A stretch of 37,104 bases of DNA from Escherichia coli. Its GTDB lineage: Bacteria > Pseudomonadota > Gammaproteobacteria > Enterobacterales > Enterobacteriaceae. Every line of letters begins with the position of its first letter. Position 1 is the stretch's first letter. Location: NCBI RefSeq assembly GCF_003334315.1, contig NZ_QOWR01000047.1. The stretch is one strand, 5' to 3'. The notes under the pieces are model-generated. The model was not told where the DNA came from. It saw nothing but the letters and a program-made list of their open reading frames with translations, and did no database searches. The position numbers and the translations under genes were made by a program. Positions 1,103 through 21,347 of the stretch are shown in pieces.

Positions 1103-1770
1103 TCCTTCCTCAATCTTGAGTAACCCCGTCGTTGAAGGGTTACTCAATTCATCCTGATTATACGCACTGCCATGGTGCAACTGCTTCAAATTAAAACTCT
1201 GGTCTGACTTCAAATAATTATCATATTATTTATTTGCGTAACGGGATATCAGAAAAAGATATTTTCCTCATTAATTTATTAGGATGTTTACATCGGATTT
1301 GTGATTAAGCGTGGTATTATTTATTAGCGAAATGTTTCTCTCTTGATTTTTTGCTCATTCATCAATTTTTCTTATTTTAAATTTTCAATCCCTTTGGGGA
1401 TTGACTTCTCTTTAGGGTAATTGATAGCCGTTAACTGACTGTTTTATGAGAAAAAGTGATATAACTTTTTATTCATTGCATAGCAAAAAATGTGATATTG
1501 CACGCACTATGTAATAACTTCTCCCACTGGCCTGGAACAACTGAACTTATTGAACTATGTTAGAAACTACGCCAGTTTAAGTATCTGCCTGAACTGGCAA
1601 GGTTAAGCACAATGATATATCGGCGCGTATTCCGTTGCATAAGTGTGCAAAAAAAGTGGAAGACGTATCGAGATTTGTGCGTCTGATCGAGACATGTTTA
1701 AAAATGGCTTGCCATAATTAACGTTGTATGTGATAACAGATTTCGGGTTAAACGAGGTACAGTTCTGTTT

Positions 1771-1914
1771 ATGTGTGGCATTTTCAGTAAAGAAGTCCTG
1801 AGTAAACACGTTGACGTTGAATACCGCTTCTCTGCCGAGCCTTATATTGGTGCCTCATGCAGTAATGTGTCAGTTTTATCTATGTTATGCCTGCGGGCGA
1901 AGAAAACAATCTAA
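1771..1914 (+). CDS. yobF: YobF, 47-aa small protein co-transcribed with cspC
   Basis: Manual translation from ATG 1771: [47 protein letters not shown]-stop (TAA 1912-1914); 12 nt upstream of cspC. Confidence 0.85.
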
Positions 1915-1926
1915 GGAATTTTTCAA

Positions 1927-2136
1927 ATGGCAAAGATTAAAGGTCAGGTTAAGTGGTTCAACGAGTCTAAAGGTTTTGGCTTCATTACTCCGGCTGATGG
2001 CAGCAAAGACGTGTTCGTACACTTCTCCGCTATCCAGGGTAATGGCTTCAAAACTCTGGCTGAAGGTCAGAACGTTGAGTTCGAAATTCAGGACGGCCAG
2101 AAAGGTCCGGCAGCTGTTAACGTAACAGCTATCTGA
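1927..2136 (+). CDS. cspC: cold-shock-domain protein CspC (69 aa)
   Basis: ORF track protein [37 protein letters not shown]... carries the RNP1 motif KGFGFI of the CspA family. Confidence 0.95.
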
Positions 2137-2182
2137 TCGAATCCACTGATCTGAAGTGTGAATACGCTTCAATCTCGCTATA

Positions 2183-2208
2183 AAGCCTCGTCGAATGCGA
2201 GGCTTTTT
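2183..2208 (+). terminator. intrinsic terminator downstream of cspC
   Basis: Hairpin GCCTCG-loop-CGAGGC followed by TTTTT (2204-2208). Confidence 0.6.
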
Positions 2209-2301
2209 ACTATGCTTTATCTTCGCTCCTGGCGTTCGGATATTTGCCCGCCGCGTGATTCGCGTTACACTTGCGGCCTTTAGTATCCTGCCGGAGTTGT
2301 C

Positions 2302-3111
2302 ATGTCTTTTTCCTGTCCACTTTGCCATCAGCCTCTTTCGCGTGAAAAAAACAGCTATATCTGTCCCCAGCGACATCAGTTTGATATGGCGAAAGAAGGG
2401 TATGTCAATCTGCTGCCCGTTCAGCATAAACGGTCTCGTGATCCGGGCGACAGCGCGGAAATGATGCAAGCACGCCGCGCATTCTTAGATGCCGGACATT
2501 ATCAGCCGCTGCGTGATGCAATTGTCGCCCAACTGAGGGAACGGCTTGATGATAAGGCCACGGCGGTGCTGGATATTGGCTGTGGTGAAGGGTATTACAC
2601 ACACGCATTTGCCGATGCGTTGCCCGAAATCACCACGTTTGGTCTGGATGTTTCGAAGGTAGCGATAAAAGCGGCGGCGAAACGCTATCCGCAGGTCACT
2701 TTTTGTGTCGCTTCCAGCCACCGTTTGCCGTTTTCCGATACCAGTATGGACGCCATAATACGTATTTACGCGCCGTGTAAAGCAGAAGAATTAGCACGAG
2801 TAGTGAAGCCCGGCGGCTGGGTCATTACTGCCACGCCGGGACCGCGACATTTGATGGAGCTGAAGGGGCTGATTTACAATGAAGTACATCTTCATGCACC
2901 TTATGCCGAACAACTGGAAGGTTTTACATTACAGCAGAGTGCGGAGTTGTGTTATCCGATGCGTCTTCGCGGTGATGAAGCCGTCGCATTATTGCAGATG
3001 ACGCCGTTTGCCTGGCGTGCGAAGCCAGAAGTCTGGCAAACACTGGCAGCAAAAGAAGTGTTCGACTGCCAGACGGACTTTAATATTCACCTCTGGCAGC
3101 GTTCTTATTAA
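2302..3111 (+). CDS. rlmA: 23S rRNA (guanine745-N1)-methyltransferase RlmA
   Basis: 269 aa; N-terminal Cys4 zinc ribbon (CPLCHQPL...CPQRHQFD) and SAM-binding motif [10 protein letters not shown] visible in the translation. Confidence 0.9.
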
Positions 3112-3674
3112 CCGTGGAAGTGCGTCCAGAGGATCTGGACGCCGATGCCGATCAGTACCAGCCCGCCGAGAATTTCCGCTTTTTTCCCAATAATTGAGCC
3201 GATAAAGCGACCAACCATCATCCCTAATGTTGACATAATCAAGGTTGCACAACCAATGGCCAATGCGGTCGCGATAATGTTGACCTGCAGGAAAGCAAGA
3301 CCAACACCCACAGCCATGGCATCCAGGCTGGTGGCAATCGCGGTGGTTACCAGTAGCCAGAAACCGTGTCGACGGCGCGGCTCTTCATCTTCATCATCTG
3401 CGCCACGAAAACCCTCAATAATCATTCGCCCGCCGAGGAATATCAGCAGCACAAACGCAATCCAGTGGTTCCATTCAAGGACAAACCGGCTGGCTAACAT
3501 GCCCATTCCCCAGCCGATCAGCGGCGTCAGGGTTTCGACGGCACCAAAAATAAGGCCGGTTCGCAATGCTTCAGAAAATTTCGGTTTATGGAGGGTGGCA
3601 CCTTTACCGATTGATGCAGCAAATGCATCCATCGACATACCAAACGCAAGAAGAACAGTAGCAGTGATATTCAT
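3108..3674 (-). CDS. mntP: manganese efflux pump MntP (188 aa)
   Basis: Start placed at the internal ATG (plus 3672-3674) giving [21 protein letters not shown]..., which is 188 aa; the 206-aa track ORF extends 18 codons upstream. Multi-pass membrane protein with an acidic loop ([14 protein letters not shown]). Confidence 0.88.
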
Positions 3675-3689
3675 GACAATGTCCTGACC

Positions 3690-3900
3690 GGGGTATCCAT
3701 AAAACACATCATCGCCCCCAGCAAACATGCATACATGAACAACAAGCCGCGATGGTTTTCGCGTTCATGCAGGCATAGCGATTGATGTGCATATGGTCTC
3801 GCCTGACTGAAAGCATTCAGTCCGTACGTGCCACGTTTTGCAACGAGTATGTTGACACGTACATTTCCGGAATCTGGAAATCGGCTACTCCCCAAATGAG
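3690..3900 (-). promoter_or_regulatory. probable yybP-ykoY (Mn2+) riboswitch in the mntP 5' leader
   Basis: The minus-strand leader contains GGGGAGUAG (plus 3885-3893) followed by UGUCAACAUACUC ... CUUUCAGUCAGGCGAGACC, motifs I associate with this riboswitch class; E. coli mntP is known to carry one. Boundaries are approximate and the fold was not computed. Confidence 0.55.
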
Positions 3901-4037
3901 GGCGCAACCTTAACATATTTTGAGAATATAAAACAACTGTTGGAATATATTATTTCATTGCTTTATTGATAACGATTTACATTTAGATTTATATATCAAT
4001 GAAACGTTAAAATAAATAACAAATAAGGGAAGAGGTA

Positions 4038-4097
4038 ATATAGCCTAAGCTATGTCTGATTATTAAAAATACACTAAACATAGCTTTGGCTAAATTC
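4038..4097 (-). promoter_or_regulatory. two MntR-operator-like palindromes upstream of the mntP promoter
   Basis: ATAGC-CTAA-GCTAT palindrome at about 4038-4055 and AAACATAGC-TTTG-GCTAAATT at about 4077-4097, resembling the MntR operator as I recall it (AAACATAGC...GCTATGTTT). Confidence 0.4.
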
Positions 4098-4102
4098 ATA
4101 AC

Positions 4103-4561
4103 TTATTGAGTTGAAACGAGAAGCTTATAAATTTTTTCCAGATCGTCGATATTTCGAACGCGGATTAACAGCCGACGCTGTTCTAATTGCATCACCAACA
4201 CGCCATCTTCCGACAAGTTCATCGCTTTGATTCGGCTATATTCAATCCAGACATTGGCGAAGAAAAAACCTTTTTGTTTAAAGATGATCTTCGGAACGCG
4301 GATCCAGAATATATAAAAACCCATCAGAGCCAGTGCGCTTAATAACCATGTCGTTATTAACGCACCATGATTCGTGACGTTGTTATAGATAAGAATGACA
4401 ATCAATCCGACGAAGATAACGCTATCGATGCGACCACGCCGGAGCAAAGGAATTGCCAGCAGGGTGGGGCCATTACGGCGGGGCATGATGAACTGATCGT
4501 AGATCGCGAAGGCCAGGAGTGCGGCGATGAAAAGAATCAGTACCAGGTCCGTGATTGTCAT
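4103..4561 (-). CDS. yobD: inner-membrane protein YobD (152 aa)
   Basis: ORF track 152 aa with several hydrophobic segments; sits between mntP and manZ as in K-12. Confidence 0.85.
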
Positions 4562-6342: not shown

Positions 6343-7314
6343 TTACTTATCGATTTTGCTGATCAGATCCATCATTTTCAGTTTCGGATCGGTGGAAACC
6401 TTACGGACTTCCAGCTCAATACCGCGCGCATTCAGTTTCTTGAACGCCTCGATATCTTTTTCATCAACCGAAACCGCGTTATTCACCTGGGTTTTACCCT
6501 GACGGAATGCCATACCACCGACGTTAACAGAGGTGATTTTCACGCCGCCTTCAACGAGACGCTCTACATCTGTTGGGTTGGTAAATAACAGCATTACGCG
6601 TTCGCCAGCATATTTCGGGTTGTTGTAGACGCGAATCATTTTGGCAACATCAACTACGTGTGCTGTTACGCCCGGAGGTGCAACCTGGGTGAGCAGTGTC
6701 TTACGAACGGTATCCGCAGCCACTTCATCACTAACAACAATAATACGGGAGACATTGGTTTCTTTGGTCCAGCGGGTGGCGACCTGACCGTGAATCAGAC
6801 GGTCGTCGATACGCGCAAGGCCAATAACCATGTAGTCGTTTGGCCCCATTGGTTTTGCCGGAGTTGGAGCCGCTTTTGATGCTGCGGCAGCGGGTGCTGG
6901 CGCGGCTTTTTCAACCGGTTTGGCTTTCAGTGCTTTCACGCCTTCACGGCCTGTTTCTACTGCCAGCGCAACCAGTTCATCAAAGCTTGGGTCATCATCA
7001 CGAGCCATTAACGTTTCCACGAGCATTGGAATGTTAACGCCTGCAATGACTTCATAATGCTCTTTGTCGACGACAATGCGGCTGGCAGCATTGAACGGGC
7101 TGCCTCCCCATGTATCAACGAGAAACAGCACGCCTTTAGTGGTGTCGAGTTTTGCCAACTGAGCGTTGTACTTTTCAATCAGCGTTTCGGCATTTTCACC
7201 TGGAACGAAATCGATCCAGCCGACGTTTTCCTGCTCGCCTAACAGCATTTCTGCCGTTTTAAGCAACTGCTCTGCAGCCCAACCATGTGTGCCTATAACA
7301 ATAGCAATGGTCAC
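6343..7314 (-). CDS. manX: PTS mannose transporter subunit IIAB, ManX
   Basis: 323-aa ORF MTIAIVIGTHGWAAEQLL... with Ala/Pro-rich linker (KAAPAPAAAASKAAPTPAKP) between the IIA and IIB domains. Confidence 0.95.
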   Translation of the reverse strand: MTIAIVIGTHGWAAEQLLKTAEMLLGEQENVGWIDFVPGENAETLIEKYNAQLAKLDTTKGVLFLVDTWGGSPFNAASRIVVDKEHYEVIAGVNIPMLVETLMARDDDPSFDELVALAVETGREGVKALKAKPVEKAAPAPAAAASKAAPTPAKPMGPNDYMVIGLARIDDRLIHGQVATRWTKETNVSRIIVVSDEVAADTVRKTLLTQVAPPGVTAHVVDVAKMIRVYNNPKYAGERVMLLFTNPTDVERLVEGGVKITSVNVGGMAFRQGKTQVNNAVSVDEKDIEAFKKLNARGIELEVRKVSTDPKLKMMDLISKIDK

Positions 7315-7776
7315 TTGCTACCTCCTTTATTATCGTTAACACCTCAACGTGCCAGATGTATTTTTGAATCGTCGTCCACAATCGAATCGATTCAGATAAG
7401 GGCTACAACCAAAAACCCCTGCGTTTCGCGATTTATTTTAGATATCGAAAAAATTATTTTATGTGATGAAGATCCGTAATTTAACTTTCGATTAGCAGAA
7501 ATTTCGAAAGGTAAAATATCCTTGTCACATTCGTTTGCAAAGGAAGGTAAATCTTTGCCAAATCAGAGGCGTCTCTGATATGTTTAACTCCCGTTTAACA
7601 ACCATGGAGTATAGGGCAGTAGCCCGCAGTATGGATCGTCACCGACGTCATTTCAGCATCAGGCCTTTTAACGCCTGCCTTTCTGGCACTCTATGCCGCA
7701 CCTTTCGTTTGCATTTTGTCGTTACGCCTGCATTATTTCTGGCGTCGAATAGCTATTCCTTAAGCAGGAGCTTGTC

Positions 7777-9333
7777 ATGGAATTCTTAATGGACCCCTCA
7801 ATTTGGGCGGGGCTACTCACGCTTGTTGTTCTCGAAATTGTGCTGGGTATCGATAACCTGGTCTTCATCGCCATTCTTGCTGACAAACTGCCGCCAAAAC
7901 AACGCGATAAAGCGCGTTTGCTGGGGTTATCACTGGCGCTGATTATGCGTCTGGGGCTGCTGTCGCTGATTTCATGGATGGTCACGCTGACCAAACCGCT
8001 ATTTACCGTCATGGATTTCTCCTTCTCCGGACGCGACCTGATTATGTTGTTCGGGGGGATATTCTTGCTGTTCAAAGCAACAACCGAACTGCATGAACGG
8101 CTGGAAAACCGCGATCATGATTCCGGCCACGGTAAAGGCTACGCCAGTTTCTGGGTGGTCGTCACACAGATTGTCATCCTTGACGCCGTCTTCTCGTTGG
8201 ATGCGGTAATTACTGCAGTAGGGATGGTTAACCATCTGCCGGTGATGATGGCGGCGGTAGTGATTGCGATGGCGGTTATGTTGCTGGCATCCAAACCGCT
8301 GACGCGATTCGTTAACCAGCACCCCACGGTGGTGGTGCTCTGTCTGAGCTTCCTGTTAATGATTGGTCTGAGTCTGGTGGCAGAAGGTTTCGGTTTCCAC
8401 ATTCCGAAAGGTTACCTGTATGCCGCGATTGGCTTCTCGATCATCATCGAAGTGTTTAACCAGATTGCGCGTCGCAACTTTATTCGTCACCAGTCGACTT
8501 TGCCGCTGCGAGCGCGTACTGCCGATGCCATCCTGCGTTTGATGGGCGGGAAACGTCAGGCCAATGTTCAGCACGATGCCGATAACCCGATGCCGATGCC
8601 GATCCCGGAAGGTGCATTTGCCGAAGAAGAACGTTACATGATTAACGGCGTACTGACGCTGGCGTCGCGTTCTCTGCGCGGGATCATGACGCCGCGCGGT
8701 GAAATAAGCTGGGTTGACGCTAATCTCGGGGTCGATGAAATCCGCGAGCAGCTGCTCTCCTCACCGCACAGCCTGTTCCCGGTATGTCGCGGTGAACTGG
8801 ATGAAATCATCGGAATCGTACGTGCTAAAGAACTGCTGGTGGCGCTGGAAGAGGGCGTTGATGTGGCGGCGATTGCTTCGGCGTCTCCGGCGATTATCGT
8901 CCCGGAAACCCTCGATCCGATCAACCTGCTGGGCGTGCTGCGTCGCGCTCGCGGGAGCTTTGTTATCGTGACCAACGAGTTTGGTGTGGTACAAGGCTTG
9001 GTCACGCCGCTGGATGTGCTGGAAGCCATTGCGGGTGAATTCCCGGACGCTGACGAAACGCCGGAAATCATTACTGATGGTGACGGCTGGCTGGTAAAAG
9101 GCGGTACAGATTTGCATGCCTTGCAGCAGGCGCTTGATGTTGAGCACCTTGCCGATGACGATGATATCGCGACGGTCGCGGGCCTGGTGATCTCGGCAAA
9201 TGGTCACATTCCCCGTGTGGGCGATGTGATTGATGTAGGGCCACTGCATATCACCATCATTGAAGCCAATGATTATCGTGTTGATCTGGTTCGCATTGTT
9301 AAAGAGCAACCGGCGCACGATGAAGATGAGTAA
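7777..9333 (+). CDS. yoaE: TerC-family membrane protein with CBS and CorC/HlyC domains, YoaE
   Basis: 518-aa ORF; N-terminal polytopic membrane domain plus soluble C-terminal half; divergent from manX as in K-12. Confidence 0.9.
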
Positions 9334-19616: not shown

Positions 19617-21302
19617 TTGAAGAAGGTTTGGCTTAACCGTTATCCCGCGGACGTTCCGACGGAGATCAACCCTGACCGTTATCAATCTCTGGTAGATATG
19701 TTTGAGCAGTCGGTCGCGCGCTACGCCGATCAACCTGCGTTTGTGAATATGGGGGAGGTAATGACCTTCCGCAAGCTGGAAGAACGCAGTCGCGCGTTTG
19801 CCGCTTATTTGCAACAAGGGTTGGGGCTGAAGAAAGGCGATCGCGTTGCGTTGATGATGCCTAATTTATTGCAATATCCGGTGGCGCTGTTTGGCATTTT
19901 GCGTGCCGGGATGATCGTCGTAAACGTTAACCCGTTGTATACCCCGCGTGAGCTTGAGCATCAGCTTAACGATAGCGGCGCATCGGCGATTGTTATCGTG
20001 TCTAACTTTGCTCACACACTGGAAAAAGTGGTTGATAAAACCGCCGTTCAGCACGTAATTCTGACCCGTATGGGCGATCAGCTATCTACGGCAAAAGGCA
20101 CGGTAGTCAATTTCGTTGTTAAATACATCAAGCGTTTGGTGCCGAAATACCATCTGCCAGATGCCATTTCATTTCGTAGCGCACTGCATAACGGCTACCG
20201 GATGCAGTACGTCAAACCCGAACTGGTGCCGGAAGATTTAGCTTTTCTGCAATACACCGGCGGCACCACTGGTGTGGCGAAAGGCGCGATGCTGACTCAC
20301 CGCAATATGCTGGCGAACCTGGAACAGGTTAACGCGACCTATGGTCCGCTGTTGCATCCGGGCAAAGAGCTGGTGGTGACGGCGCTGCCGCTGTATCACA
20401 TTTTTGCCCTGACCATTAACTGCCTGCTGTTTATCGAACTGGGTGGGCAGAACCTGCTTATCACTAACCCGCGCGATATTCCAGGGTTGGTAAAAGAGTT
20501 AGCGAAATATCCGTTTACCGCTATCACGGGCGTTAACACCTTGTTCAATGCGTTGCTGAACAATAAAGAGTTCCAGCAGCTGGATTTCTCCAGTCTGCAT
20601 CTTTCCGCAGGCGGTGGGATGCCAGTGCAGCAAGTGGTGGCAGAGCGTTGGGTGAAACTGACCGGACAGTATCTGCTGGAAGGCTATGGCCTTACCGAGT
20701 GTGCGCCGCTGGTCAGCGTTAACCCATATGATATTGATTATCATAGTGGTAGCATCGGTTTGCCGGTGCCGTCGACGGAAGCCAAACTGGTGGATGATGA
20801 TGATAATGAAGTACCACCAGGTCAACCGGGTGAGCTTTGTGTCAAAGGACCGCAGGTGATGCTGGGTTACTGGCAGCGTCCCGATGCTACCGATGAAATC
20901 ATCAAAAATGGCTGGTTACACACCGGCGACATCGCGGTAATGGATGAAGAAGGATTCCTGCGCATTGTCGATCGTAAAAAAGACATGATTCTGGTTTCCG
21001 GTTTTAACGTCTATCCCAACGAGATTGAAGATGTCGTCATGCAGCATCCTGGCGTACAGGAAGTCGCGGCTGTTGGCGTACCTTCCGGCTCCAGTGGTGA
21101 AGCGGTGAAAATCTTCGTAGTGAAAAAAGATCCATCGCTTACCGAAGAGTCACTGGTGACTTTTTGCCGCCGTCAGCTCACGGGATACAAAGTACCGAAG
21201 CTGGTGGAGTTTCGTGATGAGTTACCGAAATCTAACGTCGGAAAAATTTTGCGACGAGAATTACGTGACGAAGCGCGCGGCAAAGTGGACAATAAAGCCT
21301 GA
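19617..21302 (+). CDS. fadD: long-chain-fatty-acid--CoA ligase FadD
   Basis: Start placed at in-frame TTG 19617 ([14 protein letters not shown]...) giving 561 aa; AMP-binding motif [12 protein letters not shown]. Confidence 0.93.
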
Positions 21303-21320
21303 GCGTTAAGTCAGTCGTCA

Positions 21321-21347
21321 GACGCCGGTTAATCCGGCGTTTTTTTT
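21321..21347 (+). terminator. intrinsic terminator downstream of fadD
   Basis: ACGCCGG-TTAAT-CCGGCGT hairpin followed by seven T. Confidence 0.6.

Follow-up and report, generated by a model that had tools for sequence, protein, structure and literature searches.

The mntP control region of Escherichia coli combines a Mn2+ riboswitch leader with two predicted MntR operators

The intergenic DNA upstream of mntP in the stretch analysed here (37,104 nt of E. coli chromosomal sequence, hereafter the window) is almost certainly the native regulatory region of E. coli mntP, in which two manganese-responsive layers are combined: a Mn2+ riboswitch of the yybP-ykoY family in the mntP leader and, further upstream, two palindromes predicted to be MntR operators. 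This control region has been published and is already known, and there is nothing new in the main observation. E. coli exports manganese mainly through MntP, and the dual control of mntP by MntR and the riboswitch, with Fur, H-NS and Rho in addition, has been in print since 2011–2015 and was refined through 2025. The K-12 element has been crystallised, probed and found to respond to Mn (PMC12153347, PMC11647493, PMC10197570), and selective binding of Mn2+ and Mn-dependent activation have both been reported for the K-12 sequence (PMC12153347, PMC10197570, PMC9603457, PMC11647493).

The locus is the known E. coli mntP arrangement

The segment 3600–4150 is 100% identical to E. coli strain HS30-1, and the locus is present in 5,423 of 5,426 complete E. 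coli genomes. On the minus strand the order is manZ, yobD (4561–4103), a 428-nt intergenic region and mntP (3674–3108), the last of which begins with an ATG at 3674–3672 and is named 'manganese efflux pump MntP' in RefSeq.

3108–3674, minus strand: mntP coding sequence, the regulated gene, encoding a 188-aa manganese exporter (from the ORF list and from RefSeq, where both MG1655 and an E. coli record with 100% identity carry the annotation)

Alignment of the intergenic region with K-12 MG1655 revealed four SNPs, at 3985, 3979, 3814 and 3750, none of which lies at a conserved aptamer position, in a switch strand or in an MntR box. Two of them are the only differences from K-12 in the leader (nt 86, in the P4 loop, and nt 150, in the apical insert), and those at 3985 and 3979 fall inside a Fur-like promoter block. 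The original prediction, made from the sequence alone, had taken the region for a known E. coli mntP arrangement, and it is indeed the published K-12 element, identical to it at all conserved positions. The range then proposed, 3690–4100, holds nearly all of the element; the last ~15 nt of the leader, with the Shine-Dalgarno sequence (SD) and the start codon, fall outside it.

The mntP leader contains a covarying Mn2+ aptamer

Leader positions are counted from a +1 at 3899, the sole start that numbers the L1 and L3 adenosines as in PMC12153347 (A11 and A48, respectively). On this numbering the leader and the parts of its aptamer are as follows.

3675–3899, minus strand: mntP 5′ leader, 225 nt (nt 1 = 3899; window coordinate = 3900 − nt), with +1 placed from the A11/A48 numbering
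3790–3898, minus strand: Mn2+ aptamer, a four-way junction (nt 1–110 fold), from the minimum free energy (MFE) structure of nt 1–112, covariation and an RF00080 match of 41.8 bits
Minus strand, aptamer helices: P1.1, nt 2–8/104–110; P1.2, nt 15–17/97–99; P2, nt 19–24/32–37
Minus strand, aptamer helices: P3.1, nt 38–44/70–76; P3.2, nt 55–58/63–66; P4, nt 78–84/89–95
3885–3893, minus strand: L1 5′ strand GGGGAGUAG, which includes A11 (3889), from sequence; nt 7–14 are invariant in 73 leaders
3847–3856, minus strand: L3 block GUCAACAUAC, which includes A48 (3852), from sequence; nearly invariant in 73 leaders
3795–3800, minus strand: GAGACC, the L1 3′ strand and start of the P1.1 3′ strand, from sequence; invariant or nearly so in 73 leaders

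Folded alone, nt 1–112 has an MFE of −38.5 kcal/mol, and the corresponding structure is a four-way junction with P1.1, P1.2, P2, P3 and P4, in which two coaxial legs (P1.1-P1.2-P2 and P3.1-P3.2-P4) are present. Another feature of the RF00080 family is found in the position of the element, directly 5′ of the Mn exporter gene mntP and on the same strand. Orthologous loci were collected with the MntP protein as the sole query, so the RNA itself was kept out of their selection; this yielded 80 loci, one genome per species, with 81–99% protein identity, from Escherichia, Citrobacter, Salmonella, Enterobacter, Klebsiella, Raoultella, Kosakonia, Cedecea, Buttiauxella and other genera. The 73 distinct aptamer sequences among them were evaluated against the 34 pairs of a crystal-structure-style model. 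We found that 95.8% of the aptamer pair cells in these 73 leaders were paired, versus 24–47% when the 3′ partners were slid by 1–3 columns, and that both sides had changed in 19 of the 34 pairs, versus 10.2 ± 1.3 in shuffles; by any of five measures, no shuffle out of 500 reached the observed value. Every one of the six aptamer helices contains at least one pair with a double change, and in P4 all seven pairs do. The conserved aptamer helices can form and are under selection.

These data bear out what had been proposed for the leader. Its predicted length of roughly 225 nt on the minus strand is 225 nt if +1 is 3899, and the three signature blocks of the yybP-ykoY family (GGGGAGUAG, GUCAACAUAC and GAGACC) were all found, together with the family architecture and covariation in all six helices. 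The helices, whose failure to form would have counted against the assignment, form in the MFE structure and are each backed by covariation among 73 orthologues, and in length, A11/A48 numbering and four-way junction the leader agrees with the published E. coli mntP leader.

The element scores below the curated Rfam threshold and is absent from automatic annotation

Scanning the whole window with Rfam 15 at gathering thresholds returned no riboswitch; only a cspA thermoregulator and sroD were reported. A permissive scan of the 551 nt at 3600–4150 matched RF00080 (Manganese, yybP-ykoY) on the minus strand from 3901 to 3805 with 41.8 bits, and since this is less than the curated gathering score of 45, the family did not appear in the gathering scan. 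The predicted family match is therefore clear in its E value (6e-10) and falls short in its bit score. The alignment covers the L1 5′ strand, P2, P3 and P4 and ends before GAGACC and the P1.1 3′ strand, and the long consensus insert in P4 of the model is deleted in it. As a calibration, 20 orthologous mntP loci were scanned; all 20 matched RF00080, at 35.5–57 bits, and 10 reached 45. The score in the window is thus what enterobacterial mntP leaders usually give, and the curated threshold is a marginal one for the subgroup; the shortfall is a limit of threshold and model sensitivity and no evidence against membership of RF00080.

RefSeq (PGAP) carries no riboswitch annotation at mntP in either HS30-1 or MG1655, in keeping with the expectation that no ORF-based track would show the element. 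An experimentally validated riboswitch is thus missed both by RefSeq/PGAP and by a gathering-threshold scan with Rfam 15, and, as half of the enterobacterial orthologues scanned fall under the threshold, pipelines that apply curated cut-offs systematically miss this subgroup. In some RefSeq genomes a 'hypothetical protein' is annotated over the leader.

Elsewhere in the window, the cspA thermoregulator match (RF01766, 135.7 bits, 1751–2211, plus strand) spans the leader and coding sequence of a cspC-like gene (ORF 1927–2136), and RF01766 was also matched beside mntP-rlmA in three orthologous loci. The small RNA sroD gave a full-length match (RF00370, 115.2 bits) at 21261–21346 on the plus strand. 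The TerC-family gene yoaE (518 aa; 7777–9333, plus strand) is found about 4 kb away from mntP; yybP-ykoY elements commonly control TerC genes, but the yoaE leader (7100–7900) had no RF00080 match even at E ≤ 1.

A covarying platform helix is followed by strands that may compete with P1.1

Between the aptamer and the start codon, the following elements were identified.

3705–3789, minus strand: platform hairpin, formed by helix H5 (nt 111–122 with 185–195) around a lineage-variable inner hairpin (nt 123–177), from covariation
3749–3760 (approximate limits), minus strand: 12-nt insertion at the tip of the inner hairpin (leader nt ~140–151), in E. coli sensu stricto only
3716–3722, minus strand: G-run GCUGGGG (nt 178–184), a candidate alternative or pseudoknot partner of nt 207–213
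3697–3701, minus strand: UAUGG (nt 199–203), predicted from the unconstrained MFE structure to compete for the P1.1 3′ strand (nt 104–108) and to extend H5 in the Mn-free state
3687–3693, minus strand: CCCCGGU (nt 207–213), complementary to the aptamer 5′ strand (nt 4–10) and to the G-run (nt 178–184)
3682–3685, minus strand: Shine-Dalgarno AGGA, 7 nt before the ATG, from sequence; G216 and G217 are conserved

H5 shows compensatory changes in 9 of its 11 pairs, with 97.2% of cells paired, and is the common core of a platform whose length from GAGACC to the ATG ranges from ~75 to 128 nt among orthologues; leader length as a whole varies by about 55 nt. Inside H5, an extra hairpin of variable sequence is found in Escherichia, Citrobacter and Klebsiella; Enterobacter, Kosakonia and other genera lack it. 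The 12-nt insertion at its tip is missing from E. albertii and further Escherichia lineages outside E. coli, whereas 5,422 of 5,426 complete E. coli genomes have an identity of 95% or more across the insertion region. The insertion makes a CGCG-AAAACCAU-CGCG mini-hairpin, one pair of which is disrupted by the K-12 A at 3750. A 'terminator' called by a scan at 3763–3748 was rejected as such: it is this E. coli-specific apical mini-hairpin of the platform and no conserved terminator.

Pairing of UAUGG with the P1.1 3′ strand is possible in 96.7% of cells, and CCCCGG (nt 207–212) can pair with UUGGGG (nt 5–10) in 100%. No covariation was seen for either of these competing OFF pairings among the 73 leaders, as both of the aptamer strands involved are invariant. 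Without constraints, the full leader reaches its MFE (−84.4 kcal/mol) in the P1.1-disrupted form, which is built on the competing pairings; with P1 enforced the value is −76.9 kcal/mol. The resulting cost of 7.5 kcal/mol would have to be met by Mn-dependent docking or kinetic trapping. Modelled SD accessibility goes from 0.12 to 0.32, a modest and context-dependent change that is not decisive. Co-transcriptional probing has indicated that, without Mn, L1 and P1.1 are disrupted once the transcript reaches ~205 nt and platform pairing takes their place (PMC12153347), and the UAUGG competitor and the P1.1-disrupted MFE structure agree with this riboswitching point. In the same probing no clear Mn-dependent change in reactivity was found at the ribosome-binding site (RBS).

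We propose that Mn2+ bound between loops L1 and L3 would lock the P1.1 switch helix, and that when Mn2+ is missing a platform segment would invade P1.1, with UAUGG taking the 3′ strand and so lengthening H5 and CCCCGG taking the 5′ strand. An mRNA whose P1.1 had been invaded would be poorly translated and open to Rho-dependent termination; the mode of RBS occlusion is one that we infer. Rho has been reported to terminate within the leader and early ORF, and Mn to relieve this in part by restoring translation (PMC11647493, PMC12360218).

The G-run offers a further partner for the segment next to the SD. It sits in the loop closed by H5, and nt 178–184 can pair with nt 207–213 in 99.4% of cells among the 73 leaders. 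Pair 178:213 is A-U in 59, G-U in 10 and G-C in 4 of these leaders, and pair 179:212 is C-G in 69 and U-A in 4; since the double changes all come from one clade (Cedecea/Buttiauxella; L069, L078, L079 and L083), they may reflect a single evolutionary event. Together, CCCCGG(U), the G-run and H5 could form an H-type pseudoknot, so that the aptamer 5′ strand, the G-run and the free state would enter a three-way competition, although we consider this rather unlikely and treat it as a lead to a pseudoknot or third conformer, not as a finding. No description of such a pseudoknot was found in the literature searched. A three-way competition would differ from the 'single helix' platform described in PMC12153347 and, if true, the pseudoknot could explain the lack of a simple Mn-dependent change at the RBS in probing.

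Two predicted MntR operators lie at a conserved distance from the mntP promoter

The upstream half of the intergenic region contains the following elements.

3907–3936, minus strand: putative core promoter, with a −35 of TTGTTT (3936–3931), an 18-nt spacer and an extended −10 of TGtTAAGGT (3915–3907)
3966–3990, no strand assigned: conserved upstream block and candidate Fur site, about −67 to −91, at least 90% conserved
4036–4057, no strand assigned: proximal MntR box TAATATAGCCTAAGCTATGTCT, centred at about −147, with a 15/18 match to the mntH operator
4076–4097, no strand assigned: distal MntR box AAACATAGCTTTGGCTAAATTC, centred at about −187 and 40 bp from the proximal box, with a 15/18 match to the mntH operator

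The reference for the MntR search was the validated mntH operator as read from MG1655, a perfect dyad (AAACATAGCCTTTGCTATGTTT), which was used as AAACATAGC-N4-GCTATGTTT with up to 3 mismatches on both strands of the window. Exactly two matches were found, at 4036–4057 and 4076–4097, where 0.01 were expected by chance, and none of 100 shuffles contained two. The core (ATAGC-N4-GCTAT, at most 1 mismatch) was then tallied in 78 distinct upstream sequences; both copies are present in 70 of the 78 and at least one in all of them, the core at the proximal offset being common to all 78. Relative to L1 the cores lie at −191 to −196 (with one outlier at −204) and at −149 to −154, with a spacing of 40–45 bp, and the 237 nt upstream held no further core match in the 78 sequences. 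In the footprint alignment the cores are at least 90% conserved and the spacers and flanks are variable. The suggestion that the two upstream palindromes resemble MntR operators has thus held up, as they are the only mntH-operator matches in the window and, in Enterobacteriaceae, are conserved and keep a fixed distance to the promoter. These observations support the prediction that both palindromes are MntR operators of mntP. Waters et al. reportedly showed two MntR sites upstream of yebN/mntP in 2011, and a ChIP-exo study yielded no MntR site data. The 19-nt inverted repeat and the microRNA-family matches at 4026–4107 follow from the presence of two copies of one palindrome, and the latter were discarded as artefacts of the operator inverted repeat.

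The mntH-derived pattern had no match within 3 mismatches at the MG1655 mntS promoter (mntS-mntR intergenic region). As mntS is reportedly repressed by MntR, this implies that its operator is less like the mntH dyad than are the boxes at mntP, and it left the mntH operator alone as the reference.

Activation of mntP by MntR has been described (PMC11647493, PMC9603457, PMC8632737), and in the model given in PMC8632737, citing Dambach et al. 2015, Mn-MntR and Fur relieve H-NS silencing of mntP. The tract around the MntR boxes has a GC content of 23–27%, which is consistent with this published model. Mn-MntR, together with Fur, would act from operators ~147 and ~187 bp upstream to lift the silencing that H-NS imposes on a weak extended −10 promoter.

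Within the promoter itself, the block at ~3937–3900 is 90–100% conserved in the 78 upstream sequences and, read relative to +1 = 3899, would comprise a weak −35 and an extended −10. A consensus promoter scan did not detect the putative core promoter at 3907–3936, and its own two candidates, with second hexamers ending at 4037 and 3944, were rejected as incompatible with +1 = 3899. The best match to the Fur consensus GATAATGATAATCATTATC in 3900–4102 is 13/19, which 391 of 2,000 shuffles equalled and which is no better than chance; across the window, 102 sites reach at least 12/19, and the block at 3966–3990 itself reaches 12–13/19. Binding of Fur at the mntP promoter has been reported (PMC8632737), and a Fur box at 3966–3990 is a candidate not established by sequence alone. 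A separate block at 4003–4010 (TTAACGTT) is at least 90% conserved across Enterobacteriaceae.

Alternative interpretations

A possible but less probable account of the leader is that it acts mainly as a Rho-dependent attenuator, in which Mn2+ restores transcription-translation coupling and unmasking of the RBS is minor. An increase in mntP of about 20-fold with bicyclomycin, Rho termination in vitro within the leader and early ORF, and only partial relief by Mn have been reported (PMC11647493), mntP is listed as a Rho antitermination riboswitch (PMC12360218), and both the small modelled change in SD accessibility and the lack of a Mn-dependent change in RBS reactivity (PMC12153347) point the same way. 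Such an attenuator would, however, refine the same element and not replace it; the relief of Rho is itself ascribed to translation being switched on, and translational fusions respond to Mn (PMC10197570, citing Dambach 2015). A translated upstream ORF (uORF) is far less plausible as the basis of control. AUG188, AUG191 and AUG200 are in one frame, which is closed by a UGA overlapping the mntP AUG, so that translational coupling could be imagined: in the window this stop and the mntP start together read AUGA, a G-run precedes AUG188, and 28 of the 73 leaders have this arrangement. The frame is nevertheless not conserved, with frames 2, 1 and 0 in 33, 20 and 20 leaders, and no mntP uORF was found described in the literature searched. 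A conserved uORF or N-terminal extension from AUG188/191/200 (3698–3712) was rejected on this scatter over all three phases among species. The conserved AUG is part of the anti-P1.1 strand UAUGG, which accounts for its conservation, and the three-AUG short ORF is probably a by-product of that sequence.

The two upstream palindromes could instead be regarded as the arms of an inverted repeat (4037–4055/4078–4096) that forms a terminating or stabilising RNA hairpin at the yobD 3′ end. The 19-nt arms are 89% complementary around a 22-nt loop, and the repeat begins 6 nt past the yobD stop codon and is followed by a T-rich tract. Yet both arms are dyads in their own right and match an unrelated operator, that of mntH, and a palindrome that occurs twice must yield two mutually complementary copies. 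The hairpin stem is AU-rich and a terminator scan was empty there, and conservation centred on ATAGC/GCTAT with variable spacers and loop is the pattern of a protein site. The distance from the repeat to the mntP promoter is also conserved. We therefore judge a hairpin in place of operators to be improbable, and the two roles are not mutually exclusive. As for the aptamer, chance resemblance to the riboswitch family would fit the absence of a gathering-level match in the window (41.8 bits against a curated threshold of 45), but an E value of 6e-10, orthologues at 35.5–57 bits of which 10 of 20 pass, covariation in all helices and identity at all conserved positions to the crystallised and probed K-12 element (PMC12153347) leave it virtually no likelihood, and it is refuted by the covariation and the orthologue scans.

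Comparison with known systems

The mntP (yebN) riboswitch of K-12 is the same element at the same locus, with identical aptamer helices, L1 and L3, a shared P2 and no functional difference. A crystal structure of the apo aptamer from K-12 mntP is available (PDB 4Y1M), as cited in PMC12153347, and the element is the one of Dambach et al. 2015. The riboswitch of E. coli alx, a TerC-family gene, belongs to the same family and organism and is likewise Mn-responsive and translational (PMC12153347, PMC10197570). Compared by description, the mntP element is distinguished from it by a covarying P2 and a mntP-type L3.

The Mn2+ riboswitches of L. lactis yoaB and X. oryzae control transcription terminators or other platforms. 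Their aptamers, whose crystal structures are cited in PMC12153347, have two coaxial legs and a four-way junction, as found here, along with L1/L3 docking, a cross-helix A-minor contact and P1.1 as the switch helix, the role proposed for it in mntP. Unlike theirs, the mntP platform consists of a long helix and anti-P1.1 strands beside the SD, with an overlay of Rho (PMC11647493).

Both mntP boxes have the 9-4-9 dyad of the mntH operator in common with it, each at 15 of the 18 specified bases. At mntH a single MntR site mediates repression (Patzer & Hantke 2001, as cited in PMC10197570), whereas mntP has two predicted sites 40 bp apart and ~150–190 bp upstream, which serve activation, reportedly by countering H-NS (PMC8632737). 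A further parallel is B. subtilis mneP/mneS, where several upstream MntR boxes activate a Mn exporter gene at high Mn (Huang et al. 2017, as cited in PMC8632737); mneP/mneS differ from mntP in an unrelated promoter and box sequence and in having three boxes, and mneP has no riboswitch.
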